A DNA stretch of 64,000 bases from Candidatus Nanoarchaeia archaeon (GCA_035293285.1 DATDOM010000046.1:5982-69981), one strand, 5' to 3'. Numbered from the stretch's first letter, positions 8,038 to 26,419 are shown. Notes: generated by a model not told the origin, from the sequence alone. A program made the numbers and translations.

Positions 8038-8038
8038 T

Positions 8039-8329: not shown

Positions 8330-8335
8330 TTTAGT

Positions 8336-9416: not shown

Positions 9417-9430
9417 AAAAAAGAAAAATT

Positions 9431-10534: not shown

Positions 10535-10692
10535 GGGGCAGTTACGCCTCGCCATTTCGCTCGGCATACATCGTTTCTCAATCCAGCACATTCGCCACAT
10601 TTCGGGCGAAAATTTTTCCGTGGGAACTTTAGGTTCCACTTGATTCCGTCGTTAACTCGCGGAAGGGTTATCAGTGTTCATCCACGTCGTTA
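10535..10692 (+). repeat. composite GC-rich hairpin module (A-type fragment + inverted B module + TCAGTGTTCATCCAC box)
   Basis: 10565-10612 aligns with 42785-42835. 10614-10680 is the reverse complement of 43066-43120, with a compensated hairpin (gtgggaac/gttccac versus gtgaggc/gcctcac). Confidence 0.6.
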
Positions 10693-10778
10693 GTTATTGC
10701 AATAAATCGAGGCAAATTTTAGTGCCAGTCAAAAATTTGCCGAGTGTAAATATGGTCGCTCAAAGTGACCTATTGAAA
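10693..10778 (+). repeat. two-hairpin repeat, short form (copy E1)
   Basis: TTATTGCAATAA palindrome, CGAGG, H1 ggcaaatttt/aaaatttgcc (loop agtgccagtc), CCGAGTG, H2 ggtcgc/gtgacc. Confidence 0.75.
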
Positions 10779-10971
10779 TAGAGTTGATTTTTGGGTAAAA
10801 TAGGTATTTATACTTACTAAATCTCACCAGATATTGTAAAAATTTCAAGAATAATCCGCATAGTTGCACCATAGTGGTAGCCAAGCAAAAGATTTATTAG
10901 TTTACACCTGACATTATAAAAGCCGGTGATTCAGAGTAAAAAAGTTTGTATACGTCCAAAGAAGTGATTAA

Positions 10972-11073
10972 ATGAAACCAAAATCAGTAAAAGCAGTTTA
11001 TAAGGCATTAAACGAATTAGGGTTTGAATTTGCGAGGCAAAAAGACAACGATTTCGAAGAAAATATAAGTTAG
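10972..11073 (+). pseudogene. hicA remnant (first ~23 codons conserved, then divergent, premature stop)
   Basis: MKPKSVKAVYKALNELGFEFARQK then DNDFEENIS*. DNA is about 85% identical by eye to 9431-9500. Confidence 0.6.
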
Positions 11074-11080
11074 TTAAAAA

Positions 11081-11305
11081 ATGAAAATACCAAGAAACCT
11101 TTCAGGAATTGATGTAATAAAAGTTTTGAAAAAGCATTATGACTGGGAAGTTTACAGAAGGCAGGGGAGTCATGTCACTTTAAAGAAAAAATCAGAAATG
11201 GAAATACTAACAGTTCCGCTTCATTCTCAGCTCGACGTGGGAACATTCCTTGCTATTTTGAGAAAGGCAAATATCGAAAAAGAAGATTTTCTGAAGAATT
11301 TATAA
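11081..11305 (+). CDS. hicA: HicA-family toxin (second locus)
   Basis: IKVLKKHYDWEVYRRQGSHVTLKK...LTVPLHSQLDVGTFLAILRKANI. Confidence 0.7.
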   Translation: MKIPRNLSGIDVIKVLKKHYDWEVYRRQGSHVTLKKKSEMEILTVPLHSQLDVGTFLAILRKANIEKEDFLKNL

Positions 11306-11306
11306 G

Positions 11307-11612
11307 TTAAGAATATGTAGGAATTTTTATTGGGGCTTTGAGAAGTTCACTATTTGGAATTTCAAGTTTGTTATTTTTCCTAGTAATTCCAAGCTTTTCC
11401 AGTTCATTGTCAAGAATTCCTAATTCAGCTGCGCTCTTTAAATGCAGATTAATAGCTTCTGTAATGTTCTTTCTTGTCTTGTTTAAAGTTTTTCCCTGAG
11501 TGATTATATTCAAGTCCAAACATTCTGCAGTATACCCGTTCTTAGTTTTTCTAACAACAAAAGGAACCGGCAAGGTAAAACTCTCATTCTTATAATTAAC
11601 ATCTTTTTTCAT
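11307..11612 (-). CDS. hicB: HicB-like antitoxin (second locus)
   Basis: ...FVVRKTKNGYTAECLDLNIITQGKTLNKTRKNITEAINLHL...; convergent with 11081-11305, with 1 nt between the stops. Confidence 0.6.
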   Translation of the reverse strand: MKKDVNYKNESFTLPVPFVVRKTKNGYTAECLDLNIITQGKTLNKTRKNITEAINLHLKSAAELGILDNELEKLGITRKNNKLEIPNSELLKAPIKIPTYS

Positions 11613-11765
11613 AAGCCACTAAAATAACTTATCATATTTAAACTTTGTGCATTGCCATTGCCGCATCGATAGAACGCGCACGGAGCTTAAAGGGGGAATG
11701 CGAAGGCCTTGTTGTTGGCCCGGTTGCCCTCATCGTTGAAATAATAAAGAGATTTCTGGTCTAAA

Positions 11766-12380
11766 TTACTCAAATTTTGACAATATCTTTCTCCCTATTT
11801 TTGCAATAGAATCTTTAGCTTCCTCGCTGCTTCCCTTAGAAGTAACGTGAATGAGGTAATCATCCTTGCTAAAATAAAGAGTATAATAGTAAATGCCGGG
11901 TGGATTGAACTCTGCGCCATAATCATTCTCATTGTTGACATAAAACCTGCTCTGGTCCCCGTAATCATTCTCGCTTATCAGCCCTTCTGAACTGCGAAGG
12001 TGTGAAGATTCATACTGGTATGAGCCGTTTAGGTCGTGCAGATTTGTAAATTTCTTGAATTCAAGTATTACTCCAGTATCATTCAATCTGTCAATTACAT
12101 AGCTGCAGATGCTATATTGCAAAAGTGATGAAGATTCATCAGTTGGGTATTCCTCTGTCTTGCAAGGAGTTCCATTAAAAACTATCCCGAGCTGCTCAAG
12201 GTCCTTATTATCAAAATCGCCTGACATTTCAAGCTGCTCTAGGTCTTGTTCATTAAGCAAAAGCTCCTGGACTCCAGATATTTTCAAAGAAGGTTTCTTA
12301 TCTTGCACTTTTGTGCATCCTCCGATAAATAAAAAGAGAATTGCTAAAATTACAGCAAGTTTCACAATATCACCTTTCAT
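11766..12380 (-). CDS. putative lipoprotein, unknown function
   Basis: The internal ATG at 12380 gives MKGDIVKLAVILAILFLFIGGC (signal peptide + lipobox-like Cys). The track's upstream extension runs through a structured non-coding module. Confidence 0.45.
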   Translation of the reverse strand: MKGDIVKLAVILAILFLFIGGCTKVQDKKPSLKISGVQELLLNEQDLEQLEMSGDFDNKDLEQLGIVFNGTPCKTEEYPTDESSSLLQYSICSYVIDRLNDTGVILEFKKFTNLHDLNGSYQYESSHLRSSEGLISENDYGDQSRFYVNNENDYGAEFNPPGIYYYTLYFSKDDYLIHVTSKGSSEEAKDSIAKIGRKILSKFE

Positions 12381-12423
12381 TTTACAGAAAGAGACTATTA
12401 TATTCTTAAATGTTCTTAAAAAA

Positions 12424-12630
12424 GGACGGCATTGAAAAGCTCTCACTTCGTTCGGTCTGCCATCAGCTCGCACTTTTCTGTTATTCCTTTAAGGGAAAAA
12501 TTCGGGGACTTGCGAGTGAGCTCGTTAGCGAACTCGCTCACAGGTCACGGCAATTTCCTTTTCGCATAAACCAATTCTAAAAAGGTACTCGCAAATTGAC
12601 GGCAGCCTTCAACTTTTCAATGCCGTTTAA
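12424..12630 (+). repeat. GC-rich long-hairpin module closed by a 16-nt inverted repeat
   Basis: ggacggcattgaaaag (12425-12440) pairs with cttttcaatgccgt (12614-12629). Internal helices include gcgagt/actcgc and gtgagc/gctcac. Confidence 0.5.
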
Positions 12631-12659
12631 AAAAGCACTCAGTGTTCATCCACTCGTCA

Positions 12660-12742
12660 ATTATTGCAATAAATCGAGGCAAATTTTAGTGTAAATCAAA
12701 ATTTGCCGAGCGAAACCATTGTCGTAAAACGACCGATTAAAA
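12660..12742 (+). repeat. two-hairpin repeat, short form (copy E2)
   Basis: TCAGTGTTCATCCAC box upstream; TTATTGCAATAA; H1 ggcaaatttt/aaaatttgcc (loop agtgtaaatc); H2 gtcg/cgac. Confidence 0.75.
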
Positions 12743-12771
12743 TAATAAGTAAGAAATCAAAAATCTAATTC

Positions 12772-12915
12772 TTAAACATACAATTCCCTGTCAGGGCCCT
12801 TGAATTTTCCATTTTCCTTTTCCCAGCAGGGCATGCACTGCTTCCATGAAGGCTTGATAAAGCAGTATTTTCCGCACCGTGTGCATTTCATCTTGTAAAT
12901 AGGTTTCTTTGCCAT
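12772..12915 (-). CDS. small zinc-ribbon protein (47 aa)
   Basis: Own translation: MAKKPIYKMKCTRCGKYCFIKPSWKQCMPCWEKENGKFKGPDRELYV (CxxC...CxxC). Below the ORF-track size cutoff. Confidence 0.45.
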   Translation of the reverse strand: MAKKPIYKMKCTRCGKYCFIKPSWKQCMPCWEKENGKFKGPDRELYV

Positions 12916-13140
12916 TATTGCCTCGGTTTTATTGTGTATCTGGTAATTATCAGGTATATTTCATATTAAGGCAGCGTCTTTTAAATAGGTATGCAATTAT
13001 TTCGTCTGCAAATTAATGAATTAAGATATTGGCTGCAAATTTAATATACACTCAATCCTCTGAAGGGAAATAGCCCAGCGAGTGTTTGCAAAAATGAGAA
13101 AAGAATTGAATGTCAAATACTTGTTAAAATATTTTTGGAA

Positions 13141-13557
13141 CTATCTCATTCCTATATCAATATTAATTTCAAGGTTTGCAGTCTGGCCGGCTTCTATTTC
13201 AACAGCTGCCGGAAGGTTATTTCCTCCAATTCTGGATGATTCTTTGTTTTCAAGGTCAACAACATAATTTCCAACAGGAAGCTCCAGATTAAAGTTTCCA
13301 TCCTTGTCAGGAGTAATCTTCGCAACTATTTTCTTGCCAGGGGAAAAAACTGCCATAGGCCAGTTCTTGTAAGTTTCTTCTGTAGGCTCGCATCCCGGGT
13401 CAGGCGGATCTCTCGCTACAGGGCAAAGTGGCCCGATGTCAATTTTTCCCTCAAGAAAGCCTTTTTCTTCAATTTTACCTGTCTGCTTAGTGCACGCAGC
13501 AAAAACAACTCCAATTATAAAAAATCCGATAAGCAAAAGATTATATTCATTTTTCAT
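13141..13557 (-). CDS. secreted/lipid-anchored protein, unknown function
   Basis: N-terminal hydrophobic segment ...LLLIGFFIIGVVFAAC followed by a beta-rich domain. Confidence 0.4.
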   Translation of the reverse strand: MKNEYNLLLIGFFIIGVVFAACTKQTGKIEEKGFLEGKIDIGPLCPVARDPPDPGCEPTEETYKNWPMAVFSPGKKIVAKITPDKDGNFNLELPVGNYVVDLENKESSRIGGNNLPAAVEIEAGQTANLEINIDIGMR

Positions 13558-13768
13558 ATTTGTAGCCCGCAGTCGGGATATATTAATTTTCCGTGCAGTT
13601 ACTACTGCCTGTCTCCTTGCCCCATTGAGCCTAAAGGGTTGTATCTTCCCGAAAGCTCATCAGCATAATCATCTCCGGGCTTTTTGCCTAAAGACTTTTT
13701 TCTCTCCGGAGAGCCATTTCCATTTAGATTCTCTGTATTCTTCATTTGAATAAAGATATTTATCGGGA

Positions 13769-14074
13769 TTATGTCCTCGCCCTTCTTCTTTCAACTATCT
13801 TTTCTGTGTGATGCTCAACTCTTCGTTCAGGTGTTTCAACATAAACATTTGGCTGCGATCCAGGAAGAGCCAATCCAAGGACTATTAAAATAGCCCCTAT
13901 TATCATTGATGCAATTGAAACCTGCATTGGAAGACTAGCATACCCAATGACAGTTCTTGTCTTGCCCGCTTCAAGCTGGCTTCCTGATGCTGATGCACTT
14001 GCTATTGGAAAATAATAGAATACTGCGCCAAGAACCAATAATACGACCCCTAAGCTTAATAATCCTGTTCTCAT
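13769..14074 (-). CDS. small membrane protein (2 TM)
   Basis: Two hydrophobic spans (LLSLGVVLLVLGAVFYYF; MIIGAILIVLGLAL). Confidence 0.4.
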   Translation of the reverse strand: MRTGLLSLGVVLLVLGAVFYYFPIASASASGSQLEAGKTRTVIGYASLPMQVSIASMIIGAILIVLGLALPGSQPNVYVETPERRVEHHTEKIVERRRART

Positions 14075-14199
14075 TTATACCACCGAAGTTGTTAAATAAT
14101 CCGCATTATATAAATTTTAATTAGGCTTATATGCGCGCATAAGCTTAGGCTTAAAAAGACAAAACTTAAATATACGTAAGGCTGCATTTTTAGAAGGCC

Positions 14200-14832
14200 A
14201 TGGAAGAAAAAAACAATATCTGGATTCTGCTTATTGTAGCTGCTGTGGCAGTTGTGGCTATTGCATTTGTCTCCTTTTCATCTCAAAATCAAAAAATACA
14301 GGGTTCAGGATATGGGTTAAATAATGAGGCTGATTCTGTAGGGCAGGCGCTTGTGAAAAAACCAGTAAGCAAAGGCCCCGGTGCAATTGAGAAGGATTGT
14401 GAGAAATACCATACATACGTAAATTGCGTATGTTTTGAGGAGAACACTTACAAGGTGGACATCACAATGAATGACCAGCTTAAGATGCCTTCACCTTATT
14501 TCAAGTGCGGGGCAATTAACCCTAAATTTTATTCAATTGAAGAAAGAATTGTCCCGGAAGTTAATAATCCGGAATTGTGGACAGGCAGCCTCAGAATTGC
14601 CGGGAACACTCATCCATTCTCATTTGATACCTCAAGCAGGATTTTTAGCATTGATTACCGGAATGAAGAGTCAAGCCATCACTATTTCAGCACAACTTTT
14701 GAAGGTGAAGGAAATTACTTCTACGGCCCGATTTACACAGACATGGAGAATTACCCTGCCAGTTTTGCATACACTGAAATAACATTTGGGGAAAACTCAA
14801 TTATAAGTTTCAAGCCTTTGCTGATAGGATGA
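14200..14832 (+). CDS. membrane-anchored hypothetical protein
   Basis: N-terminal TM (IWILLIVAAVAVVAIAFVSF) followed by a soluble domain. Confidence 0.4.
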   Translation: MEEKNNIWILLIVAAVAVVAIAFVSFSSQNQKIQGSGYGLNNEADSVGQALVKKPVSKGPGAIEKDCEKYHTYVNCVCFEENTYKVDITMNDQLKMPSPYFKCGAINPKFYSIEERIVPEVNNPELWTGSLRIAGNTHPFSFDTSSRIFSIDYRNEESSHHYFSTTFEGEGNYFYGPIYTDMENYPASFAYTEITFGENSIISFKPLLIG

Positions 14833-14964
14833 TTTAATTTACGGGCAGTAACTTGAACACGTTTTATTTTGCTGAGATTCTGACAAGAAATGTAATAACC
14901 AAAGCAGGTGAAATAGCGCCAATATCAATATTTAATGTAGTTTCTTTCAGTTAAGCCGATTGGT

Positions 14965-15876
14965 TCAGGAAAGATGTAGTTTTTTCTTTGATGGTATATA
15001 TTGTTTTTCAATGAGAGAGATGTTAGTGCCCTTAGCCTTCATAAATTTGTACAAGTATTTTTTATCGTTATACCAATGGTTATAATCAGGATTGTGTTTT
15101 TTTATTCCAACCAATACTATGCCGGGCGTGATATAAACCCTGAACCATTTTGGGACAAGGAGTGACATCCAGACTGCAATCCGGTGAATGGCTTTTAGGA
15201 GATAATTTTTTGGTGATTTTGGGATGAGCATGTGCAGCGGAAAATACCTGACATTGGCAAATCCCTTCCTGTAGAACAGGCTCACAATCTCGTTTATTGA
15301 AGGCACGCCTATGTGGTCCCGGGCATTTCCAAAATCCGAATTAACTCTTTTTTCAATGTCCTTGGATGATGGAGAAAGATAAATCCTCTTTGGGATATAC
15401 TCCTGTATTGGGCTGCTGTAGATAAAATAGCCGCCGTTATTTAGCTGTAAAGCAATATTCAAGAAAGCAATTTCTTTTTCAAAATCAGTCAGGTGTTCCA
15501 TGACTTCGGAACAAATGACGATATCAAATTTTCCCAGGCTCTTCTCCGGATAAATCAGGTCATAGTATACAGAATTCACGATTTTTCCGTAATTCCTGAG
15601 TGTTTTTTTGTGTATTTGCAGGCAGGTCTTGCTAATCTCTGTGCAGACATAATTTTGTATTTTGCCATCAAACATTTCCAAGATAACTTTTGCCAGCTCT
15701 CCAAATCCGGAGCCAACCTCTAAAATAGATACGCCTTTTCTCCCTTTCAAAATCTTTTCTATTATCCTGACAATCTGCACTTTTGTATCTATATTGGCAG
15801 TATAAGCAGGCAGCCCCTCACTATAAAAATTTTGATAGAATTCACCAAATTTTCTTGAGATTAGCAGTCGATTCAT
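14965..15876 (-). CDS. class I SAM-dependent methyltransferase
   Basis: ILEVGSGFGELAKVILE (motif I) and DIVICSEVMEHL; divergent from dxs. Confidence 0.7.
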   Translation of the reverse strand: MNRLLISRKFGEFYQNFYSEGLPAYTANIDTKVQIVRIIEKILKGRKGVSILEVGSGFGELAKVILEMFDGKIQNYVCTEISKTCLQIHKKTLRNYGKIVNSVYYDLIYPEKSLGKFDIVICSEVMEHLTDFEKEIAFLNIALQLNNGGYFIYSSPIQEYIPKRIYLSPSSKDIEKRVNSDFGNARDHIGVPSINEIVSLFYRKGFANVRYFPLHMLIPKSPKNYLLKAIHRIAVWMSLLVPKWFRVYITPGIVLVGIKKHNPDYNHWYNDKKYLYKFMKAKGTNISLIEKQYIPSKKKLHLS

Positions 15877-15975
15877 TTCCGGAATGACTATAAACCGCTT
15901 AATAAACTTTATGTTCCATAATTATAATTGAAAAACTTTATAAATAGTCATAGACATTCCAAGACAGGGGTGTAA

Positions 15976-17859
15976 ATGGAGCAATCAAATGTGGAGAACA
16001 GCATTCTTGACAGAGTAAATTCTCCAAGGGATTTAAAGAATTTAAGCATTGAACAGCTCAAAATCCTTTCAAAAGACATCAGGGAGAAGATTTTGGAGGT
16101 TGTTTCTAAAAACGGCGGCCATTTAGGAGGCCCTCTTGGCGCTGTTGAGCTTACTCTTGCAACCCATTATGTTTTTGATTCGCCAACTGACAAGATTGTG
16201 ATTGACACAGGCCACCAAAGCTACCCTCACAAGCTCATTACTGGAAGAAAAGGCCGCTTCCACACTTTAAGGCAGTATCAGGGAATCTGCGGATTCTGCA
16301 ATATTTTTGAGTCGGAATATGACGCTTTTGGCGCAGGCCACGCATCAACTGCAATTTCTGCAGCGCTTGGAATGGCAAAAGCGCGCGATTACAAAAAAGA
16401 AAGTAACAAAGTCGTGGCAATTATTGGCGACGGCGCAATGACTGCTGGGCTAGCATATGAGGCATTAAACAATGCAGGGTACCTTAAGTCAGACATTCTT
16501 GTAATATTAAACGACAACCGGATGAGCATTTCGCCAAACGTAGGCGCACTTTCAAATTACTTAAACAGGATTGTGCTAAAGCAGGGATACTTCAAGCTAA
16601 GAAAAGGCACAAAGGAAATCTTAAGCATGATTCCCGGCATTGGTGAAGAAGAGCTTGAAAAAATATTCAAGGCGCAGGAAAAATTAAGGGTTTTGTCAAG
16701 CGAAGGCAATTTCTTTGAAAGCCTCGGATTCCAGTACTTTGGCCCGATTGACGGCCACAATCTTGAAGAGCTGATTTCTGCACTAAAAAATGTAAAAGAC
16801 CTAAAAGGCCCTATTCTTTTGCACGTCAAGACTGAAAAAGGAAAAGGCTACTCGCTTGCGGAAACTGACCTTGACAAGTTCCACGGAATGTCCCCGTTTG
16901 ACCCAATCAACGGCCAGAAATATGTGACAACTACAAAAATGGCATATACCGATGCATTTGCAAATGCGCTAATCAGGATTGCAAAAGATGATGAAAAAAT
17001 AATTGCAATAACTGCCGCAATGAAATCTGGAACTGGACTTCACAAGTTTGAAAAGCACTTTCCGGAAAGGACAATTGATGTCGGAATTGCAGAGCAGCAC
17101 GCTGCAACTTTTGCCGCAGGCCTTGCAATAAACGGCATGAAGCCGGTCTGCGCAATTTATTCAACATTTCTCCAAAGGTCTTTTGACATGATAATCCACG
17201 ACATCTGCCTTCAAAAGCTTCCGGTGATTTTTGCACTCGACAGGGCGGGGCTAGTCGGCGATGACGGGCCAACACACAACGGCCCTTTTGATGTTGCATA
17301 CTTAAGGATAATCCCAAACATGACTGTGATGGTTCCAAAAGATGAAAATGAGCTTCAGCACATGCTCTACACAGCAACATTGCACAACGGCCCCTCATCA
17401 TTAAGATTCCCAAGAGGTAATGCAATAGGAGTCGGCCTAAGTCCTGATTTAAAAAAACTTGAAATCGGAAAAGGAGAAATCATCAGAAAAGGAAAAGATG
17501 TCCTGATTATAGGGATAGGCCCGATTTTATATGATGCTATAAATGCAGTTGAAGAGCTTAAGTGCGATGCTACAATAATAAACGCAAGGTTTGCAAAGCC
17601 CCTTGATGAAAGCCTGATTTTGGAATATGCAAAAGATTTTGATACTATAATAACACTTGAAGAATCTTCAGTCAAAGGCGGATTTGGCTCGGCAATACTT
17701 GAGCTTTTGAACGAAAAAGGCATGAACAAAAAAATCAGGATGATTGGAATTCCTGATACATTCATCGAGCACGGCAAGCAGGACATCCAGAAAAAGATTG
17801 CAGGGATCGACAAGGACAGCATCAAGAAAGTTATAAGCGAAGTAATAAATAAAAAATAG
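15976..17859 (+). CDS. dxs: 1-deoxy-D-xylulose-5-phosphate synthase
   Basis: 627 aa; GGHLGGPLGAVELTLATHYVFD, DTGHQSYPHKLITGR, IGDGAMTAGLAYEALNNAG. Confidence 0.95.
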   Translation: MEQSNVENSILDRVNSPRDLKNLSIEQLKILSKDIREKILEVVSKNGGHLGGPLGAVELTLATHYVFDSPTDKIVIDTGHQSYPHKLITGRKGRFHTLRQYQGICGFCNIFESEYDAFGAGHASTAISAALGMAKARDYKKESNKVVAIIGDGAMTAGLAYEALNNAGYLKSDILVILNDNRMSISPNVGALSNYLNRIVLKQGYFKLRKGTKEILSMIPGIGEEELEKIFKAQEKLRVLSSEGNFFESLGFQYFGPIDGHNLEELISALKNVKDLKGPILLHVKTEKGKGYSLAETDLDKFHGMSPFDPINGQKYVTTTKMAYTDAFANALIRIAKDDEKIIAITAAMKSGTGLHKFEKHFPERTIDVGIAEQHAATFAAGLAINGMKPVCAIYSTFLQRSFDMIIHDICLQKLPVIFALDRAGLVGDDGPTHNGPFDVAYLRIIPNMTVMVPKDENELQHMLYTATLHNGPSSLRFPRGNAIGVGLSPDLKKLEIGKGEIIRKGKDVLIIGIGPILYDAINAVEELKCDATIINARFAKPLDESLILEYAKDFDTIITLEESSVKGGFGSAILELLNEKGMNKKIRMIGIPDTFIEHGKQDIQKKIAGIDKDSIKKVISEVINKK

Positions 17860-17954
17860 ACATTGCATTCACAGCAATTGCTAAAAATAAAATCGGGCTT
17901 CGCCACTAGTTACTCGCGCCCGCATTGGCGCGAAATGCATTAAACGTAAATTCA

Positions 17955-18171
17955 CTGAATGTTCCGAGGCAAATTTTAGTGCCAGTCAAAATTTGCCGAG
18001 CGAAATTATTGAAAATTCAAAGAATTTTCCGGTTTAATTTCATCTATCATTGAAAAATAACATTTAAACTGCGGCAATAACGGAAAACATTAAACTAAAC
18101 TCATTAAACCTTTCACAATAATTATTAGAAAAATAAAATTTAAAAAATAAATAAAAATTACAACAAATAAA
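17955..18171 (+). repeat. two-hairpin repeat, long form (copy E3) with AT-rich promoter-like tail
   Basis: CCGAGG, H1 17968-17997, H2 gaaaattc/gaattttc 18011-18029, GGCAATAAC 18073-18081, AACATTAAAC boxes, TTTAAAAAATAA about 25 nt before the ispG ATG. Confidence 0.75.
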
Positions 18172-19248
18172 ATGCTCGAATACAAATCACCGCAAATTCA
18201 AAGAAGAAAATCAAGGAAAGTAAAAGTCGGAAAGATTTTCATAGGAGGCGATGCGCCGATTCCAATCCAGTCGATGACTACAACTGACACAACAGATGCA
18301 AAAGCAACGATTAAGCAGATTCAGGAGCTTGAAGAAGTAGGCTGCGAAATAATCAGGGTTTCTGCGCCTACAATGGAGGCGGCAAAGGCATTAAAGGAAA
18401 TAAGGGCAAACATCAATATTCCTCTTGTTGTGGACATTCATTTTGACTACAGGATTGCGCTTGAAGCAGTAAAATATGTCGACAAAGTCAGGATTAATCC
18501 AGGCAACATCGGAAACCCCGACAAGGTCCAGCAGGTTGTGAATGCGTGCAAGGAATACAAAGTTCCTATAAGGATTGGTGTAAATCTCGGCTCGCTTGAG
18601 CGCGATTTGTTTGAAAAATATGGATATTCTCCGGATGCAATGGTTGAATCGGCGATGCGCCACGTAAAGATTCTTGAAGACCTTGATTTTTATGACACAA
18701 TAGTTTCGTTAAAGGCATCAGACGTTCCAAGGATGGTTTTGGCATACAAATTATTTGCAGAAAAAACAGATTACCCATTGCATCTTGGCGTAACAGAAGC
18801 AGGCTCAAAATTGCCAGGCGCAATAAAATCATCAATGGGTATGGGAATGCTCCTCTCACAGGGAATCGGCGACACAATAAGAGTTTCATTGAGTGAGGAC
18901 CCAAAAGAGGAAGTAAAAGTCGGAAAAAACATTTTAAGGTCGCTTGGATTAAGAAATGACGGCGTGCAGATAACAAGCTGCCCGACCTGCGCAAGGACCC
19001 AGATTGATGTAATAAAGCTTGTTGAAAAAATAGAAAATGCAACTGACAAAATCAAGAAGCCTATTCACGTTGCAATAATGGGATGTGCTGTCAACGGTCC
19101 TGGCGAGTCAAAAAAAGCCGATATAGGGATTGTAGGCGCGCCCGGAAATCACTTGCTTTACAGGGAAGGGAAGATTGTCAAAAGAATTAATGACAATGAG
19201 ATTGAGCAGGTTCTTCTGAATGAGATTAACGAGATTGCAAATAAATAA
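18172..19248 (+). CDS. ispG: 4-hydroxy-3-methylbut-2-enyl diphosphate synthase
   Basis: 358 aa; IQSMTTTDT, SCPTCARTQIDV, MGCAVNGPGES. Confidence 0.95.
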   Translation: MLEYKSPQIQRRKSRKVKVGKIFIGGDAPIPIQSMTTTDTTDAKATIKQIQELEEVGCEIIRVSAPTMEAAKALKEIRANINIPLVVDIHFDYRIALEAVKYVDKVRINPGNIGNPDKVQQVVNACKEYKVPIRIGVNLGSLERDLFEKYGYSPDAMVESAMRHVKILEDLDFYDTIVSLKASDVPRMVLAYKLFAEKTDYPLHLGVTEAGSKLPGAIKSSMGMGMLLSQGIGDTIRVSLSEDPKEEVKVGKNILRSLGLRNDGVQITSCPTCARTQIDVIKLVEKIENATDKIKKPIHVAIMGCAVNGPGESKKADIGIVGAPGNHLLYREGKIVKRINDNEIEQVLLNEINEIANK

Positions 19249-19251
19249 AAT

Positions 19252-19413
19252 ATGAAAAAGCAATATAAAACTATAAGTATTAATAGATATTTTATAATAG
19301 TATTAATCGTAGTGCTTATTGTTGGATTCAAATTTGGTTGGGTTATTGGTATAATGTTTGCAGCTATTCTGGGATTTTTATACAAAATAATTGAGAATTC
19401 AAATAAAAAATAA
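19252..19413 (+). CDS. possible small membrane protein (53 aa)
   Basis: Own translation: MKKQYKTISINRYFIIVLIVVLIVGFKFGWVIGIMFAAILGFLYKIIENSNKK. Starts 3 nt after the ispG stop. Confidence 0.25.
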   Translation: MKKQYKTISINRYFIIVLIVVLIVGFKFGWVIGIMFAAILGFLYKIIENSNKK

Positions 19414-19415
19414 AC

Positions 19416-19727
19416 CTAATTCCTCACGACAACTTTCTTCTTTTTATTCAACGGCTCAATAACCAAAGTATCGAATAAGTCAACAATTTTTTTAACGAAT
19501 GGATTTGCAACATTTAATTTGTACAATTTTGCATTGCCAATGTTTCTTGTGTTTTTTACAATTCCAAGTTCCACAAAATCATCCCAAAGCCTAAATAAAG
19601 TTGTTCTGCCTATGCCTGAGCCTTCTGCTATGTCTGAAATTGAGTAGTCAATCTCTCTCCCTTCTATTAAAAATTCCAGCACCTTGATTTTGGGAGTGTT
19701 AATAAATTTTGTAAAAGCTGTTGCCAT
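19416..19727 (-). CDS. winged-helix transcriptional regulator
   Basis: YSISDIAEGSGIGRTTLFRLWDDFVELGIVKNTRNIGNAKLYKLN; divergent from the methyltransferase-dxr pair. Confidence 0.6.
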   Translation of the reverse strand: MATAFTKFINTPKIKVLEFLIEGREIDYSISDIAEGSGIGRTTLFRLWDDFVELGIVKNTRNIGNAKLYKLNVANPFVKKIVDLFDTLVIEPLNKKKKVVVRN

Positions 19728-19814
19728 ATTAATGACTAAACGAGTAATATTTATATAACTTTGTTAATACTGTTATAAATAAATAACAACTGTATTTTTA
19801 TAAAAACAATAAAA

Positions 19815-20492
19815 ATGAATAAAGTAAATATCTGGGATGAATTAAGCATGCAGTTCGACGGCTATAGGAAAAATCTATTTTACGGCGTTGCAGATAACAT
19901 GTACACTGCATATCCCATAATTCTTGATTATATAAAAAAGAACAAAAAAGGCGTTTCAAAAAAAGTGCTGGAATACGGCTGCGGGACAGGAACATTTTGC
20001 AGAAAGCTTCCCTCATCGGGGTTTGAACCCATAGGAATAGACATCTCGCCAAAAATGATTTCTATTGCAAAAAAACACAATAAAAGTATTCATTTTTTTG
20101 TGGGTGATTCAAAAAAAGCTGTAAAACTTTCTGGAAAAAGAGAGAAATTTGGGTTTGTAGTTGCAATAATGGTTTTTCAGTTTATTGAAGATATAAGAAG
20201 CTGCATTGAGGATTTGTCAAATTGCCTTGAAAAAAATGGCCATATTATTTTTGCTGTGCACAATCCAAAAAAGATGAGGGAAAGAAAAATAACAAATAAA
20301 CTAAAGCTTGAAGACAAGGAAGTTGACATTTATATCAGGAGTTCAAAAGATTATGATAAAATGTTCAATTCTCTTGGATTTAGCAAAAAACTTGAAAAGT
20401 ACCCGAAAACAAGCGAGGAGTTCCTTAAAAAATACACTCAGAAAGATTCTTTAAGAATATCAAAATACATGATTTTGGCTTACAAAAAATGA
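19815..20492 (+). CDS. class I SAM-dependent methyltransferase
   Basis: VLEYGCGTGTFCRKL motif I; its stop overlaps the dxr start (ATGA). Confidence 0.7.
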   Translation: MNKVNIWDELSMQFDGYRKNLFYGVADNMYTAYPIILDYIKKNKKGVSKKVLEYGCGTGTFCRKLPSSGFEPIGIDISPKMISIAKKHNKSIHFFVGDSKKAVKLSGKREKFGFVVAIMVFQFIEDIRSCIEDLSNCLEKNGHIIFAVHNPKKMRERKITNKLKLEDKEVDIYIRSSKDYDKMFNSLGFSKKLEKYPKTSEEFLKKYTQKDSLRISKYMILAYKK

Positions 20493-21655
20493 AACGAATC
20501 TCAATTTTAGGCTCGACAGGCTCAATAGGGACACAGTCCCTTGATGTAATAAGAAAATACCCTGAAAAGTTCAAAGTTGTAGGGCTGACTGCAGGAAATA
20601 ATTCTGAATTATTGATTAAGCAGATAAAGGAATTTAAGCCAAAAGCAGTTGCAATAATGGACAAAAGCAAGGTTGCAGATTTGCTCAATTTCTCCTCATG
20701 CCAGGTTTTTTCAGGAACAGAAGGGCTTAACAAAATTGCGTCATTAAGCGAAGCAGACACTGTGATTAATTCTCTTGTCGGCTCGTCAGGAGTAGAGCCC
20801 ACTTACAGTGCAATAAAAGCCAAGAAAAATATTGCTTTGGCAAACAAGGAAACTTTGGTTGCTGCAGGCTCGGTAATAATGGAAGAGGCAGAAAAAAACA
20901 ATGTAACGGTAATGCCGATTGATTCTGAACACAGCGCAATATTCCAGTGCCTTAACGGCGAAAACAAGAAAGAAGTTGAAAAAATTATAATAACATGCTC
21001 AGGCGGCCCTTTTAAGAATTTTTCAGGTGAAGAGCTAAAAAATGTTACTGCAAAAGATGCATTAAAGCATCCCACCTGGAATATGGGCGCAAAAATAACA
21101 ATTGATTCGTCCACTTTGATGAACAAAGGATTTGAAGTGATTGAAGCCCACTGGCTTTATGGAACAAATTATGACAAAATTGAAGTTGTAATTCATCCGC
21201 AAAGCATAATACACTCGCTTGTAGAGTTCAGGGACAAGTCAGTAATTGCCCAGCTTGGAATTCCGGACATGAGAATACCAATACAATACGCCCTCTCTTA
21301 TCCAGAAAGGCTTGAAAGCAGTTCTGAATCCCTGAGCCTTTCAAAAATAAAATCGCTCGAATTCAAGGAGCCTGATTTTGAAAAATTTCCTTGCCTAAAA
21401 TATGCGTTTGAAGCAGGAAAAACAGGGGGAACAATGCCTTGCGTTATGAATGCAGCAAATGAAATTGCGGTTCACGCTTTCCTAAATGATAAAATCAGCT
21501 ATCTTGACATTGCAATTATAATAAAAAAAATGATGGATGACCATAACCTGATAAAAAATCCAAATTTGCAGGAGATTCTTGAAGTGGACAGAAAAGTGAA
21601 GGAAGAAACAAAAAAAGTAATTGAAAATGGGGAATTTAATCGTCAAAAAAGTTAA
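20489..21655 (+). CDS. dxr: 1-deoxy-D-xylulose-5-phosphate reductoisomerase
   Basis: ILGSTGSIGTQSLDV, LANKETLV, IDSEHSAIFQCL, HPTWNMGAKITIDSSTLMNKG. Confidence 0.95.
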   Translation: MKRISILGSTGSIGTQSLDVIRKYPEKFKVVGLTAGNNSELLIKQIKEFKPKAVAIMDKSKVADLLNFSSCQVFSGTEGLNKIASLSEADTVINSLVGSSGVEPTYSAIKAKKNIALANKETLVAAGSVIMEEAEKNNVTVMPIDSEHSAIFQCLNGENKKEVEKIIITCSGGPFKNFSGEELKNVTAKDALKHPTWNMGAKITIDSSTLMNKGFEVIEAHWLYGTNYDKIEVVIHPQSIIHSLVEFRDKSVIAQLGIPDMRIPIQYALSYPERLESSSESLSLSKIKSLEFKEPDFEKFPCLKYAFEAGKTGGTMPCVMNAANEIAVHAFLNDKISYLDIAIIIKKMMDDHNLIKNPNLQEILEVDRKVKEETKKVIENGEFNRQKS

Positions 21656-21878
21656 TGCAATGTTCCGAGGCAAAATTTTATTGGCAGGAAAAATTTTACC
21701 GAGCGAAACTATTGAAAATTCGAAGAATTTTCCGGTTTTAAACCGATGTGGATTAAAAATAAACTACAGCAATAACGAACGAACATTAATTAATAGCATT
21801 AAACCGACGGCATTGAGATTTTACAATAAGGAAATTTAAAAAATAAAAGACGGAAGAAATGATAAACTAAACCAAAAA
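21651..21878 (+). repeat. two-hairpin repeat, long form (copy E4)
   Basis: Begins at the dxr stop codon (gTTAATGCAATG). H1 21669-21700 (ggcaaaatttt/aaaattttacc), H2 21714-21732, GCAATAAC 21769-21776, GAAATTTAAAAAA upstream of ispDF. Confidence 0.75.
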
Positions 21879-23048
21879 ATGAATTACGCAATCATCGTCG
21901 CAGCAGGAAGCGGCAAAAGGATGGGGAAAAAAGAAAATAAAGTATTTCTTTCATTACAGGACAAACCCATAATTTACCACACAATAAAAAAATTCCAGAA
22001 TTGTAAAATAATAGATGAAATTATAGTAGTCACGAGAAAAGAAGACAAAAAAAAAATAGAGGAAATAAAAAAAAGATTCAGTTTTAAAAAAATCAGTTCA
22101 ATTGTTGAAGGCGGGAAAGAAAGGCAGGATTCTGTTTACAATGGCTTAATGTCGATCAAAAGCGCAAAAGAAGACAACATAATTCTGGTGCATAACGGCT
22201 GCAATCCTTTGGTCAGGGAATCTGAAATTGTTTCCTGCATAAAAGCAGCAGAAGAAAACGGCGCGGCAATTGTCGGATTTCCATTAAAAGACACAATAAA
22301 AAAGGCAAAAAATGAATTTGTTCAGTCTACTTTAAACAGGGAAAATATTTTCCAGGTCCAGACGCCGCAGTGTGTAAGATACGGCCTGTTTCTAAATGCA
22401 TTTAAAAACTTAAAAGCCAAAAAGCTCAAAGTAACCGACGATTCTTCAATGGTTGAAGCGCTTGGCAAAAAAGTCAAAATCGTGCCCTGCTCATATGAAA
22501 ACATCAAGATAACCGCAAAAGAGGATCTGGAAATTGCACATGGAATATTGAATAAAAGCAAATCAAGTGTGTTCAGGACAGGAATGGGGCAGGACAGCCA
22601 CAGGTTTTCAAAAGACAAAAATAAAAAACTTGTTTTGGGCGGTTTTACAATTGATGAAACCGGATTTGATGCAAATTCTGACGGGGATGTAATTCTCCAC
22701 GCACTGTTTAATGCAGTAAGTTCCACAATTGGCGAGCGCTCGCTTGGCTTTTACGCTGATGAAATGTGCAAAAAAGGAATTACTGACAGCAAAGAATATC
22801 TTAAAGTGATTTTGGAAAAAATGAGAAATTCCGGATTTGAATTAAATAATGTAAGCATTGCAATTGAAGCCTCAAAGCCAAGGCTTGAAAAGCACACAAA
22901 AAGCATAAAGGACTCGTTGTCAAAAATATTAAGCCTTGAAAAATCCAAAATAGGAATAAGTTATACTTCAGGCGAAGGCCTTACTGATTTTGGAAAAGGG
23001 CTTGGGATGCAGTGCCTTGCTTATGTAAGCCTTGATGAGTCATCTTAA
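21879..23048 (+). CDS. ispDF: bifunctional IspD/IspF (MEP cytidylyltransferase / MEcPP synthase)
   Basis: N-terminal IIVAAGSGKRMG; C-terminal half RTGMGQDSHRF...GDVILHAL. Confidence 0.95.
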   Translation: MNYAIIVAAGSGKRMGKKENKVFLSLQDKPIIYHTIKKFQNCKIIDEIIVVTRKEDKKKIEEIKKRFSFKKISSIVEGGKERQDSVYNGLMSIKSAKEDNIILVHNGCNPLVRESEIVSCIKAAEENGAAIVGFPLKDTIKKAKNEFVQSTLNRENIFQVQTPQCVRYGLFLNAFKNLKAKKLKVTDDSSMVEALGKKVKIVPCSYENIKITAKEDLEIAHGILNKSKSSVFRTGMGQDSHRFSKDKNKKLVLGGFTIDETGFDANSDGDVILHALFNAVSSTIGERSLGFYADEMCKKGITDSKEYLKVILEKMRNSGFELNNVSIAIEASKPRLEKHTKSIKDSLSKILSLEKSKIGISYTSGEGLTDFGKGLGMQCLAYVSLDESS

Positions 23049-23117
23049 TCCTTTTAAAAACATATAAATGCCTTAAAATCAGCAATATTAATATACCTTC
23101 TGTTATACTCATTCGCT

Positions 23118-23966
23118 ATGGCCATACCATCAAATGCAAAGATAAACCTGTTCTTAAAGATAGGAAAGAGGCAGAAATCAGGCTACCATAACATACAGTC
23201 AGTCATGCAGAAAATTGAACTAAGCGACAACATCACGATAGAACCTCTTACCGAAGACAAGATAGTGATTGAATGCACAAATGCTGACCTTGAAAATGAA
23301 GAGAACCTTGCCTATAAGGCAGCTTCGCTGCTTAAAAAGAAATTCAGGGTAAAGCACGGGGTAAGAATCCACATCGAGAAAAACATCCCTTTTGAGGCAG
23401 GCCTTGGCGGAGGCTCAAGCAATGCAGCAACAGTTCTTTCAAACCTGAACAAGCTCTGGACTTTAAGGCTTAGCGAAAAGCAGCTGATGAACCTCGCTGC
23501 CCAGATAGGCTCAGATGTCCCATTTCTTATAGGGGACGCTCCTGCGCTTGTCGAGGGAATAGGTGACAAGATAAAAAAAATAAACAAGTCTTTTAGCGTC
23601 AACGTCGTTTTGATAAACCCCGGCTTTAGGGTATCAACAAAATGGGCTTATGCAACCTATGACAAAATGAAGCCAAAAATCAAGACAGATGCCAACATCA
23701 AGGAACTAATCAAGGCAATGGAAAGAAAGGACATATCAAAAATTGCTGACAATGTGCATAATGATTTTGATTCAGTCATCACAAAAAAATACAAAGTCCT
23801 CGAGCAGATTAAGACAAACCTTGTCAGAAATGACGCGCTCTCTGCCTCAATTTCAGGCTCAGGCCCCACAGTATTTGGAATTTTTAAGAGCATTTACGAG
23901 GCACGCGAAGCTTTTTTCAAAATCCAGTACGATTATCCTTTCGTTTTCCTGACAAAAACTATATAA
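23118..23966 (+). CDS. ispE: 4-diphosphocytidyl-2-C-methyl-D-erythritol kinase
   Basis: KINLFLKIGKR..., PFEAGLGGGSSNAATVL (GHMP kinase motif). Confidence 0.9.
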   Translation: MAIPSNAKINLFLKIGKRQKSGYHNIQSVMQKIELSDNITIEPLTEDKIVIECTNADLENEENLAYKAASLLKKKFRVKHGVRIHIEKNIPFEAGLGGGSSNAATVLSNLNKLWTLRLSEKQLMNLAAQIGSDVPFLIGDAPALVEGIGDKIKKINKSFSVNVVLINPGFRVSTKWAYATYDKMKPKIKTDANIKELIKAMERKDISKIADNVHNDFDSVITKKYKVLEQIKTNLVRNDALSASISGSGPTVFGIFKSIYEAREAFFKIQYDYPFVFLTKTI

Positions 23967-24018
23967 TTAAGGGCAGAATAACCTGATTCTTAAGCAGTTA
24001 ATAGGGCGCACAGTAAGT

Positions 24019-24211
24019 GTCAATGCCATAAATCGAGGCGAAAATTAGTGCTATTCAATTTTCGCCGAGTGAAAATATTGAAAATTCGCAGAATTTTCCA
24101 GTTGAACGTCATTATGCATTAAAACAATAATAACTAACGACGGCAATAACTGACAACATTAAACTAATAACATTGAAAATTTCACGACAATAAACTAAAT
24201 CACAATAAAAA
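24019..24211 (+). repeat. two-hairpin repeat, long form (copy E5)
   Basis: H1 24037-24066 with compensated stem ggcgaaaatt/aattttcgcc, H2 24080-24098, GGCAATAAC 24142-24150, AACATTAAAC boxes. Confidence 0.75.
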
Positions 24212-25165
24212 GTGAAAAATGAGGAAAAACCAAATAACAAAATGCCAATTATAAAGGTAGCAAAGCACGCAGGATTCTGCTTCGGGGTAAAAAAGGCAAT
24301 TGAGATAGCTGAAGAGGTTGCATCGAAAAACTCAGGGCCGACATATGTCCTTGGCCAGCTTGTTCATAACGAGCGCGTTATAAAGAACCTCGAAGACAAG
24401 GGAATTGTTTTTGTGGACGGGATAAATAAAATACCGCAGAATGCTGTGACTGTCCTAAGGGCGCACGGCGAGCCGGGAACTACTTATGTCTCGCTTGGGC
24501 AAAAGTCAATAGAAAAAGGAAAAAACCTCAATGACGCAACCTGCCCCCTTGTCACTCTTGTTCACAATGTGGCAATCAAGCTAAAGAACTCAGGGTATGA
24601 AGTAATAATTTTCGGAAAGCACGACCATCCTGAGTCAATAGGCACGAGCTTCCATCTCAAAGGAAAGGACACCTTCATTGTAGAGCACCAAGATGATTAT
24701 CAGATAGTGGTTGACTACATCAATAAAAACAATTTTGAAAAAGTTGTAATAATTTCGCAGACAACAATGTCTGTTTATGGTTACAAAGACCTTATCGATA
24801 AAATAAACTCAAAAATACGGAATGCTTTTGTCGAGATTCCGTTAAACCTGCGCGACCTGTCGATAAAGCACGGCTATGTCGACACAATCTGCAACCCGAC
24901 AAAGCAGCGCCAGTCTGACACTGAAGAGATTGCAAAAGAATCCGATGTCGTCATTGTGATTGGCGGGTTAAATTCAAGCAACTCAAAAGAGCTTTACCAT
25001 AAATGCGAGGAGCTCGGAGTCAGGTCTTACTTCATCCAGTCAGCAGAGCAATTGAAAAAAGAGTGGTTTGATTCAATGGAAAAGATAGGAGTGACAGCGG
25101 GCGCATCAACTCCGGATTACCTGATTGATGAAGTTGTTGATAGGATTAAGGAACTTGTTTTTTAG
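24212..25165 (+). CDS. ispH: 4-hydroxy-3-methylbut-2-enyl diphosphate reductase
   Basis: AKHAGFCFGVKKAIE, ...VLGQLVHN.... The track start is GTG; the in-frame ATG at 24242 (MPIIKVAKHAGFCFG) is the more likely start. Confidence 0.9.
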   Translation: MKNEEKPNNKMPIIKVAKHAGFCFGVKKAIEIAEEVASKNSGPTYVLGQLVHNERVIKNLEDKGIVFVDGINKIPQNAVTVLRAHGEPGTTYVSLGQKSIEKGKNLNDATCPLVTLVHNVAIKLKNSGYEVIIFGKHDHPESIGTSFHLKGKDTFIVEHQDDYQIVVDYINKNNFEKVVIISQTTMSVYGYKDLIDKINSKIRNAFVEIPLNLRDLSIKHGYVDTICNPTKQRQSDTEEIAKESDVVIVIGGLNSSNSKELYHKCEELGVRSYFIQSAEQLKKEWFDSMEKIGVTAGASTPDYLIDEVVDRIKELVF

Positions 25166-25200
25166 GTTAAAAATAGAAAATAAGAAAAATAAAAAATTGC

Positions 25201-25656
25201 TTATTCAGCAAAAAATCCCATCCTTTCTGAGTCAAACTTCCATGCTTCCGGTAGTTTTCCCGTTCTTTTATAGTATTTTGCAAGCCTGTTTATCTTTGAT
25301 TCTGCCAAGTGAAGCCCCCTGATTGCAGTCTCGTCCTTCTTGTTTGTTTCCATGTGCTTTTTGACAGCAGCATATTTCTTGAACAGTGCAATAAGGTCTT
25401 CAGGCATCTCTCCTGCAAGCTTTTTCTCTGTGAGTATCTCTGTTATTGATTTTCCGCAAAGCACCTGGACGCTTGGAATGCCGTATGAATCCCTTAGCAT
25501 CAGCCCAATCTGCGACGCTGCCTTTCCCTCCTTTGCAAGCTTCCCTATCAAGAGCTCGACTTTCTTTGAGTCATGCAAAATCCATGAAGGAGATGTCTTT
25601 TTTGCCGGCCTCTTTGAGCCTGATTTTCCGCGTTTTCCCGAATGCATTCTTGCCAT
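25201..25656 (-). CDS. rps15: 30S ribosomal protein uS15 (S13e type)
   Basis: MARMHSGKRGKSGSKRPAKK... Confidence 0.9.
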   Translation of the reverse strand: MARMHSGKRGKSGSKRPAKKTSPSWILHDSKKVELLIGKLAKEGKAASQIGLMLRDSYGIPSVQVLCGKSITEILTEKKLAGEMPEDLIALFKKYAAVKKHMETNKKDETAIRGLHLAESKINRLAKYYKRTGKLPEAWKFDSERMGFFAE

Positions 25657-25965
25657 TTTATTCCTCCGATTTATGTTTTAGTTTTTATTTTGATATATTC
25701 TTAGTTTTTATTTTTTTAGTTTTTTATATTTTATTATTTCGTCCTTCGTTTTTTTTAAATTTCGTTATTGTAAAACCTTAATGCCGTAAGTTTAATGTTA
25801 ATCGTTATTGTTCGTCCGTCAATGCCAGTTCGTCATTGTCGTTGTTATTTATTGTAGTTTTAATGTTTAATGACTTTCAATCGGAAAATTCTTCGAATTT
25901 TCAATATTTTCACTCGGCGAATTTTGACTTACACTAAAATTCGCCTCGATTTATTGCATTAACTC
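25657..25965 (-). repeat. two-hairpin repeat, long form (copy E6, inverted)
   Basis: Read on the minus strand: GTTAATGCAATAAATCGAGG, H1 ggcgaatttt/aaaattcgcc (25916-25945), H2 gaaaattc/gaattttc. The tail carries CATTAAAC boxes and GAAATTTAAAAAAA and leads to the rps15 start. Confidence 0.75.
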
Positions 25966-26098
25966 TAGCGTATTTTATTTCTCTGGAGAAATTGTATTTT
26001 CATCCAGTATAGCCAAGCCGTAACCGAGCTACCTTTACCTATAGGATGAATTGATGGTTTATAAAGGTTATTGTTGAGTTTTTGTATAAAGCTTAGAA

Positions 26099-26419
26099 TT
26101 ATTTTTGCTCAACACCCCAATGAGTAGAGATTACTCCTGGAATCCCTATTTCGATTCCAAAATTTCTTTTAAATTGATCTTTATTTTCAACTATAGATAC
26201 TCCTAATTCAGTAATATTTATTGTGATAAACTCGCCATCAAGAAGTTTTTCACCCTCAATCATGTACATCCTTATCAAATAATTTAAAGCGTTTGTTAGT
26301 TCTTTTTCATTCAACTTTGTGACTTCTAATAGTTTTGATTGTCTAACTTCATCACCTTGTTCTATATCTATATCATAGATGTGACCTAAAACTAAAATTG
26401 CATTTTCTTTGGTTTTCAT
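26099..26419 (-). CDS. hypothetical protein (possible winged-helix fold)
   Basis: 106-aa ORF; the segment LNEKELTNALNYLIRMYMIEGEKL is HTH-like. Confidence 0.3.
   Translation of the reverse strand: MKTKENAILVLGHIYDIDIEQGDEVRQSKLLEVTKLNEKELTNALNYLIRMYMIEGEKLLDGEFITINITELGVSIVENKDQFKRNFGIEIGIPGVISTHWGVEQK

Follow-up and report, generated by a model that had tools for sequence, protein, structure and literature searches.

A complete bacterial-type methylerythritol phosphate pathway between ribosomal protein genes of a Woesearchaeota chromosome: probably an old acquisition common to a large archaeal clade

How does a complete set of bacterial-type genes for isoprenoid precursor synthesis come to stand among the ribosomal protein genes of an archaeon? 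The question is raised by a 64,000-nucleotide stretch of DNA from Candidatus Nanoarchaeia archaeon (GCA_035293285.1, DATDOM010000046.1:5982-69981; the window hereafter), in which a 9.2-kb block (15976-25165) carries six genes of the 2-C-methyl-D-erythritol 4-phosphate (MEP) pathway, all on the + strand. A first-pass annotation of this DNA had described a complete bacterial-type MEP pathway transferred into an archaeal chromosome, which was borne out by the gene families, the genomic context and the clade to which the genes belong. The ultimate origin of the genes is horizontal transfer from bacteria. As to when this happened, our results point to an old bacterial acquisition, inherited vertically since then, and to a functional pathway common to a large clade of Woesearchaeota, a reading to which we assign a probability of about 0.9.

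Gene identities were established with NCBIfam equivalog or equivalog-domain models at their curated cut-offs, with which the Pfam results were concordant. The six genes of the pathway are as follows:

15976-17859, + strand: dxs; TIGR00204, 841 bits (cut-off 466)
18172-19248, + strand: ispG (gcpE), 4-hydroxy-3-methylbut-2-enyl diphosphate (HMBPP) synthase, 358 amino acids (aa); NF001540, 503 bits (cut-off 345)
20489-21655, + strand: dxr, 1-deoxy-D-xylulose 5-phosphate (DXP) reductoisomerase, 388 aa; NF009114, 567 bits (cut-off 461)
21879-23048, + strand: ispDF, fused MEP cytidylyltransferase and 2-C-methyl-D-erythritol 2,4-cyclodiphosphate (MEcPP) synthase, 389 aa; TIGR00453 and TIGR00151
23118-23966, + strand: ispE, 4-(cytidine 5'-diphospho)-2-C-methyl-D-erythritol (CDP-ME) kinase, 282 aa; TIGR00154, 262 bits (cut-off 139)
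24242-25165, + strand: ispH (lytB), HMBPP reductase, 307 aa from the ATG at 24242; TIGR00216, 265 bits (cut-off 188)

Two further genes lie inside the block:

19416-19727, - strand: small winged helix-turn-helix (wHTH) gene (IclR-type HTH) between ispG and dxr; PF09339, E=4.9e-5
19815-20492, + strand: class I S-adenosylmethionine (SAM) methyltransferase; Methyltransf_23/11/25, BioC/UbiG-like, under the curated cut-offs

Because every family assignment exceeds its curated cut-off, all seven MEP activities are encoded; the weakest of the seven assignments is the IspF domain of ispDF (TIGR00151, 130 bits against a cut-off of 116), while the IspD domain of the same protein reaches 227 bits (TIGR00453, cut-off 181). 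All six open reading frames (ORFs) were found where the first-pass annotation had put them, with each of the motifs it quoted present in the translations, and its statement that every step from pyruvate and glyceraldehyde 3-phosphate to isopentenyl diphosphate (IPP) and dimethylallyl diphosphate (DMAPP) is covered agrees with the seven families above cut-off. Of the single co-oriented cluster it described, the co-orientation stands, whereas contiguity does not, as the wHTH and methyltransferase genes separate ispG from dxr. Between the stop of the methyltransferase gene and the start of dxr there is an overlap of 4 nt. The ispH reading frame opens at a GTG (24212); the ATG at 24242 is more likely to be the start, as the 307-aa product from this position is the one called in independent public assemblies, and an exact-protein lookup matched the ATG-start version but returned no match for IspH from the GTG.

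Are these genes still capable of supporting the pathway? Catalytic residues, whose inspection had been recommended with the original observation, were judged in alignments to solved structures; catalytic and metal ligands proved intact, the contact residues of IspF being partly non-consensus. Dxs keeps, in comparison with the E. coli enzyme 2O1S, the thiamine diphosphate (ThDP) motif GDG...NDN and the equivalents of H49, E370, Y392, R398, D427, H431 and R478 (residue numbers, here and in the other comparisons, refer to the E. coli enzymes). The [4Fe-4S] cluster ligands CxxC...C...E of IspG align with those of A. aeolicus 3NOY. In Dxr, GSTGSIG, DSEH, HPTWNMG and NKGFEVIEA are kept and an equivalent of E231 is present (alignment to 6MH4), and the IspD half of the fusion retains GxGKRM and NIKIT. 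IspE, compared with E. coli 1OJ4, preserves K10 (NAKINL), the catalytic Lys and Asp, the GLGGGSSNAA loop and GSDVP, and IspH (3DNF/3KE8) preserves three Cys, HxE, SQTT and NSSNS. In the IspF half the D/H/H ligands of Zn are retained, and the domain reads ANSDGD for AHSDGD, KSLG for GDIG and TSGE for TTTE. The same variants occur in all clade members compared, i.e. in the window, in five close relatives (L001-L005, see below) and in the distant L008, and their fixation as deep as L008 makes them a conserved lineage feature and not a sign of decay.

The MEP genes are under purifying selection. Between the window and its orthologues the proportion of nonsynonymous differences (pN) is 0.08-0.24, synonymous sites are saturated, and the ratio of nonsynonymous to synonymous substitution rates (dN/dS) is 0.05-0.12 wherever it could be computed. 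Such selection lends only indirect support to activity in vivo; the pathway is probably functional in its host. A decaying relic, in which the genes persist but their function is lost, might be suspected from the divergence of IspF at several substrate-contact residues, from the long intergenic spacers and from an ispH that is split into two ORFs in one public contig (see below). However, all ORFs of the window are full length with their catalytic and metal ligands in place, dN/dS does not exceed 0.12 for any gene, and the IspF variants are fixed in the clade, including L008, a sign of selection rather than drift. We therefore consider a relic extremely unlikely.

If the pathway is maintained, for how long has it been there? 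Relatives were collected by scanning a single genome for each GTDB species with the window Dxr. The loci with the nine closest Dxr proteins (L001-L009) all belong to metagenome-assembled genomes (MAGs) of Woesearchaeota or Nanoarchaeota, at 62-76% identity, among them Yap2000.bin4.8 (L007), a MAG of Huang et al. The best bacterial Dxr proteins stand at 55-60%: that of an unclassified bacterial MAG reaches 60%, and those of Sporomusa, other Bacillota, Petromonas and Firestonebacteria reach 55-57%. The order dxs-ispG-dxr-ispDF-ispE-ispH is kept in L001, L002, L004, L005 and L008, and Dxs is 74-77% identical to its orthologues in the first four of these. In L001, L004 and L005 the arrangement is DUF7121-P1-P0-L1 (-), six MEP genes (+) and S15 (-), and the right-hand part of it, from dxr to S15, is seen in L003. 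The block is thus not patchily present, but found at the same site in three relatives and beside S15 in a fourth. The L1-P0-P1-DUF7121 genes sit 0.6-1.3 kb upstream of dxs in these three relatives, compared with 6.9 kb of hypothetical ORFs between them in the window.

Phylogenies had been proposed for each of the six proteins; neighbour-joining (NJ) trees of the top 80 matches were computed for Dxr and IspG, and both contain an archaeal clade. The Woesearchaeota clade of the Dxr tree, which includes Yap2000.bin4.8, is monophyletic with a bootstrap support of 99/100, and the archaeal clade of the IspG tree with 89/100. The window groups with L001-L005 in one subclade, and L008 belongs to a second. 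For Dxs, IspDF, IspE and IspH, clade membership was assessed through synteny and identity and not through trees against bacteria. In a collection of 5.8 billion proteins, at least 119 further 90%-identity protein clusters lie at 72-78% identity to the window Dxr, and among the matches listed each one with an organism name is from Woesearchaeota or Nanoarchaeota; as the best 120 matches still stand at 72-78%, the clade must be much larger than the matches listed. The nonsynonymous substitution rates (dN) of the MEP genes (0.08-0.29) are similar to those of the neighbouring P0, L1 and S15 genes in the same genome pairs (0.18-0.28), as co-inheritance predicts.

In the NJ tree the archaeal Dxr clade has as its sister 'bacterium MEGAHIT-group-1.518' (L013). 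This bacterium was considered as a possible donor of dxr; its sister placement is supported at only 33%.

The composition of the block agrees with a long residence. GC content is flat over the window (0.33-0.43), as the AT-richness noted by eye had suggested, and both GC and GC3 of the MEP cluster fall inside the host range. Relative synonymous codon usage (RSCU) of the cluster correlates with that of the other window genes at r = 0.94, the references being 0.97 for two halves of the host genes against each other and at most 0.47 for bacterial dxr and ispG. The codon usage of the cluster is fully ameliorated and host-like.

These data bear on the alternative that the block is a recent transferred island, private to this genome or to few close relatives. 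Several features would suit such an island: the compact, co-oriented arrangement of bacterial-type genes, the lineage-specific insertions (the methyltransferase, and the wHTH gene common to L001 only), the 6.9 kb of extra ORFs upstream and the repeat elements in the spacers (described below). On the other hand, neither an integrase or transposase gene nor a tRNA lies at its borders: domains of these two enzymes were not detected in the ORFs from 2.3 to 35 kb, and the sole tRNA lies at 45.7 kb. Moreover, codon usage is indistinguishable from that of the host genes, synonymous sites between orthologues are saturated while dN equals that of adjacent ribosomal genes, the same chromosomal slot is occupied in relatives whose ribosomal proteins are only 63-74% identical, and the archaeal sequences form a very large, monophyletic clade. 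A recent island is thus highly unlikely. An origin of the block from a mobile element or a virus was likewise ruled out by the lack of mobility genes and by the conserved chromosomal slot. The archaeal Dxr and IspG clades, the shared synteny, the host-like codons and the fact that the phenomenon has been published do not support the novelty and island character attributed to the locus at first; because its genes belong to a long-standing, widespread archaeal clade, the block is not novel.

Is the surrounding chromosome itself archaeal? Upstream of the block lie Rpo7, L1-P0-P1 and DUF7121, and the immediate neighbours of the block in the relatives are represented in the window by:

7162-9031, - strand: P0 and L1 ribosomal protein genes, left neighbours in relatives; by family assignment
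25201-25656, - strand: ribosomal protein S15 (S13e-type); NF006331, 183 bits, and PF08069

The S15 gene, in which a eukaryal/archaeal S13e N-domain is present, is convergent with ispH, with a spacer of 35 nt. Farther downstream follow S13-S4-S11-Rpo3-tRNA-Leu-L18e-L13-S9, FtsZ and a diphthine-synthase-like TP_methylase, and an archaeal signal recognition particle (SRP) RNA that exceeds the Rfam gathering score was found at 59607-59877. Of the archaeal surroundings reported for the block, P0, P1, L18e, Rpo3, Rpo7 and the diphthine-synthase-like gene were thus recovered, with the SRP RNA in addition, whereas the intron-bearing tRNAs mentioned with them were not confirmed, as ARAGORN found only one tRNA in the window (Leu, 45746-45833). 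The flanking P0, L1, P1 and S15 are syntenic with, and 63-95% identical to, those of Woesearchaeota MAGs, which identifies the host. The window is from a chromosome of Woesearchaeota (GTDB Nanoarchaeota/Woesearchaeales).

It could be argued that the contig is instead bacterial, e.g. from the candidate phyla radiation (CPR), and has acquired archaeal informational genes, given that DPANN archaea and CPR bacteria co-occur and exchange genes and that ispD/F was placed nearest to Ca. Nealsonbacteria by Huang et al. (PMC8421398). This has a negligible probability, as the SRP RNA, P0/P1/L18e, the S13e-type S15, Rpo3, Rpo7 and the diphthine-synthase-like gene are all archaeal, and the named nearest relatives are all Woesearchaeota or Nanoarchaeota.

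A mis-joined assembly, with a bacterial MEP fragment inserted into an archaeal contig, is also suggested by the bacterial type of the genes and by the left flank (9.0-15.9 kb), which consists of hypothetical ORFs without clear domain affiliation. Nevertheless, five independent assemblies of the same organism, from different samples and assemblers (JGI 3300025323, ENA ERZ27254795, ERZ28563803 and ERZ27254767, and Logan SRR3989295), contain the ispH-S15 junction at 99.8-100% nucleotide identity, and positions 12662-17988 of the window are reproduced exactly by one Logan contig. The loci L001, L004 and L005, which come from other studies, hold the cluster between L1-P0-P1 and S15, and L003 its dxr-to-S15 part; composition and codon usage are uniform. 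The exclusion of a chimeric join, advised from the start, was therefore achieved, with the junctions recurring in independent assemblies and in other MAGs: a chimera is effectively refuted.

In the JGI 3300025323 contig (L082:516-1439, corresponding to 24.2-25.2 kb of the window and otherwise 99.9% identical) ispH is called as two ORFs, of 198 and 78 aa. The split might reflect either a strain-level frameshift or nonsense variant or a sequencing error.

What, then, would the pathway do in this archaeon, and how might it have been assembled? Dxs would condense pyruvate with glyceraldehyde 3-phosphate in a ThDP-dependent reaction, and Dxr would reduce and rearrange the resulting DXP to MEP with NADPH. 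The IspD half of the fusion protein would then add cytidine monophosphate (CMP), IspE would phosphorylate the product, and the IspF half would cyclise it to MEcPP, which the [4Fe-4S] enzymes IspG and IspH would reduce to IPP and DMAPP. The pathway would thereby replace a missing mevalonate route and supply the cell with isoprenoid precursors. As for its history, an ancestor of the clade probably took the genes from bacteria, presumably from Bacillota-like donors for dxr and ispG and from others for the other genes; a six-gene co-oriented block then arose between archaeal ribosomal protein genes, followed by vertical inheritance, purifying selection and full codon amelioration.

Several observations weigh against an old, functional and jointly inherited pathway. 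First, the IspF half has non-consensus substrate-contact residues (H34N, D56S) and a score barely above the cut-off, so that the activity of this domain may be presumed at most from its sequence. Second, no reductant partner for IspG and IspH (ferredoxin or flavodoxin) was identified within the window. Third, the trees are NJ trees of two of the six genes. Fourth, the IspH of L008 (13125-14036) is only 34% identical (171 bits) to that of the window, compared with 55-62% for Dxr, IspG and Dxs; for IspH, IspE and IspDF taken together, identities to L008 are 34-48%. Against the Aquifex IspH the window and L008 proteins score 181 and 189 bits, respectively, so their mutual match is no closer. This points to either fast evolution or a separate origin or replacement of late-pathway genes, and, with the L008 IspH as distant as that of Aquifex, it is not proven that all of the block was acquired at once.

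Finally, the fate of the IPP has to be considered. Polyprenyl synthase, UbiA, geranylgeranylglyceryl phosphate synthase (GGGPS) and mevalonate genes are missing among the scanned window ORFs of at least 100 aa (most of them); as the window covers only 64 kb, neither the absence of mevalonate genes nor the presence of geranylgeranyl diphosphate (GGPP) synthase, GGGPS or UbiA elsewhere can be shown from it. No prenyltransferase was found in the flanks of the relatives' loci examined, and the flanks of L008 and L009, searched for IPP consumers and mevalonate genes, contain unrelated housekeeping genes. GGGPS and digeranylgeranylglyceryl phosphate synthase (DGGGPS) were reported missing in Woesearchaeota subgroup J (Huang et al. 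2021, PMC8421398).

With regard to the cofactor of Dxs, a protein related to 5-aminoimidazole ribonucleotide (AIR) synthase (ThiL-like; 58499-59467, + strand), recognized by Pfam only, could be a thiamine-monophosphate kinase.

How does the locus compare with the MEP systems already described? The MEP cluster is already known, and the window belongs to the Woesearchaeota MEP clade described in the literature. Castelle et al. (2021, PMC8204110), who credit the first report to Castelle and Banfield (2018), described co-located MEP genes in a 52-genome clade, adjoined in some genomes by genes for UbiA, a bacterial glycerol-3-phosphate (G3P) dehydrogenase and acyltransferases. Huang et al. (PMC8421398) found the pathway confined to Woesearchaeota subgroups F and J, with ispD and ispF fused, and with dxr and ispG nearest to Firmicutes and ispD/F nearest to Ca. 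Nealsonbacteria. Hoshino and Gaucher (2018, PMC6107057) ascribed the MEP enzymes of DPANN to horizontal gene transfer. The window shares with the published clade the DPANN host, the complete bacterial gene set, its co-location and the fused ispD/F; its Dxr and IspG cluster with published MAGs, and Bacillota are among the top bacterial dxr matches. It differs in that its cluster is not adjoined by UbiA, bacterial G3P dehydrogenase or acyltransferase genes and includes a methyltransferase gene, a wHTH gene (shared with L001 only) and hairpin repeats in three spacers. In Yap2000.bin4.8 (L007:1419-11128), dxr is not part of a MEP cluster but follows genes for a thiolase, a short-chain dehydrogenase/reductase (SDR), an acyl-CoA dehydrogenase (Bcd), EtfB and an EtfA-ferredoxin, together with two acyltransferases and a bacterial NAD-dependent G3P dehydrogenase (GpsA), and with an archaeal S2 gene downstream, in agreement with the bacterial lipid gene neighbourhood of Castelle et al. 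(2021, PMC8204110).

The bacterial systems (E. coli, Bacillota) have the same seven activities, catalytic residues and cofactor motifs. However, their genes are dispersed, whereas the window has a single 9.2-kb block with the codon usage of its archaeal host, where promoters and translation signals are presumably archaeal too. In the 69 bacterial loci sampled, dxr had at most one other MEP gene (ispG or ispE) at a distance of up to 10 kb, which supports the view, put forward with the original observation, that the genes are usually scattered in bacteria. Tight co-oriented clustering is unusual relative to bacteria.

The IspDF proteins of Campylobacter jejuni and Helicobacter pylori (1W55, 8XHU) have the same order of an N-terminal IspD and a C-terminal IspF, and among PDB entries they match the IspF half best. 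This half, though, matches them at only 70-81 bits and has H34N, D56S and TSGE for TTTE in the archaeal protein, and the archaeal fusion is nearest to Ca. Nealsonbacteria and not to Campylobacterota (Huang et al., PMC8421398).

Another DPANN lineage, the Micrarchaeota, also has a horizontally acquired MEP pathway, described as an independent acquisition in a 2025 paper (PMC12892359). The Dxr of two Micrarchaeia (L016, L057) is bacterial-type, with 55-56% identity to that of the window; the two form a pair with 100% bootstrap support, united with the Woesearchaeota clade in no more than 3 of 100 replicates, and no other MEP genes were found within 10 kb of their dxr. A separate clade and a dxr without MEP neighbours indicate that this acquisition was independent.

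Do the features by which the window departs from its relatives carry a function of their own? In addition to the methyltransferase gene that precedes dxr, a second class I SAM methyltransferase gene (14965-15876, - strand) diverges from dxs across a spacer of 99 nt; in none of L001-L009 is there a counterpart of either gene at these positions. Only in L001 is the position of the wHTH gene occupied by an orthologue, with 81% identity. A further such feature is an intergenic repeat of about 90-180 nt, with 10 copies in the window:

17944-18122, + strand: copy in the dxs-ispG spacer
21645-21817, + strand: copy in the dxr-ispDF spacer
24013-24191, + strand: copy in the ispE-ispH spacer
25832-25960, - strand: copy elsewhere in the window
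10687-10780, 12654-12752, 39288-39386, 49347-49521, 59493-59573 and 60045-60143: copies elsewhere in the window

The repeat contains a conserved first hairpin (GAGGC, a 10-bp stem, a AGTGCCAGTC loop and GCCGAG) with compensatory changes at 3 of the 10 pairs, followed by a second one of variable sequence in which pairing is kept, and in four or five copies, including the three in MEP spacers, it ends in the tail AACnnCGGCAATAAC...ACATTAAAC. Most copies follow the 3' end of a like-oriented gene at a distance of 30-140 nt. The three MEP spacers that hold a repeat are 223-312 nt long, compared with the short ones of relatives (e.g. 11-52 nt in L002 and L005). In L001 there are one or two copies (593-647 and a weak one at 19625-19659), and in L005 a single copy in the 21-kb locus (15060-15114), upstream of S15 as in the window; in both cases none lies within the MEP cluster. 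A scan of 17860-26100 against Rfam (E<=1) gave nothing credible, the only match being psRNA6, whose 20 bits fall short of the gathering score of 60. A miniature inverted-repeat transposable element (MITE) and a terminator-like 3' element are both candidates for the nature of this family.

It is unlikely that the repeat and the dxr-coupled methyltransferase are of real consequence. Should they be, the hairpin repeat could be an undescribed structured RNA or a terminator/insulator module, and not a mere MITE, by which the acquired block is divided into units with expression of their own, and the methyltransferase, translationally coupled to dxr, could modify an isoprenoid intermediate.

The region between L1 and dxs (9032-15975) consists of about 6.9 kb of short hypothetical ORFs, several of which are predicted to encode membrane or secreted proteins. 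Only one of them (11307-11612) has an orthologue in L001. A pair of direct repeats of 81 nt (9431-9511, 10972-11052) seems to correspond to the 5' ends of small paralogous ORFs. Outside the block, a free-standing ORF of 197 aa (33533-34126, - strand), similar to LAGLIDADG_3 homing endonucleases, lies between SPFH and nitroreductase genes, with no obvious enclosing intron or intein.

The use of the MEP pathway by archaea bears on the 'lipid divide' and on the source of membrane precursors in DPANN with reduced genomes. As this significance has already been published for the same clade, the window adds one more well-assembled example. It usefully shows the block set between ribosomal protein genes, ameliorated, under purifying selection and not adjoined by the bacterial lipid genes of some relatives.

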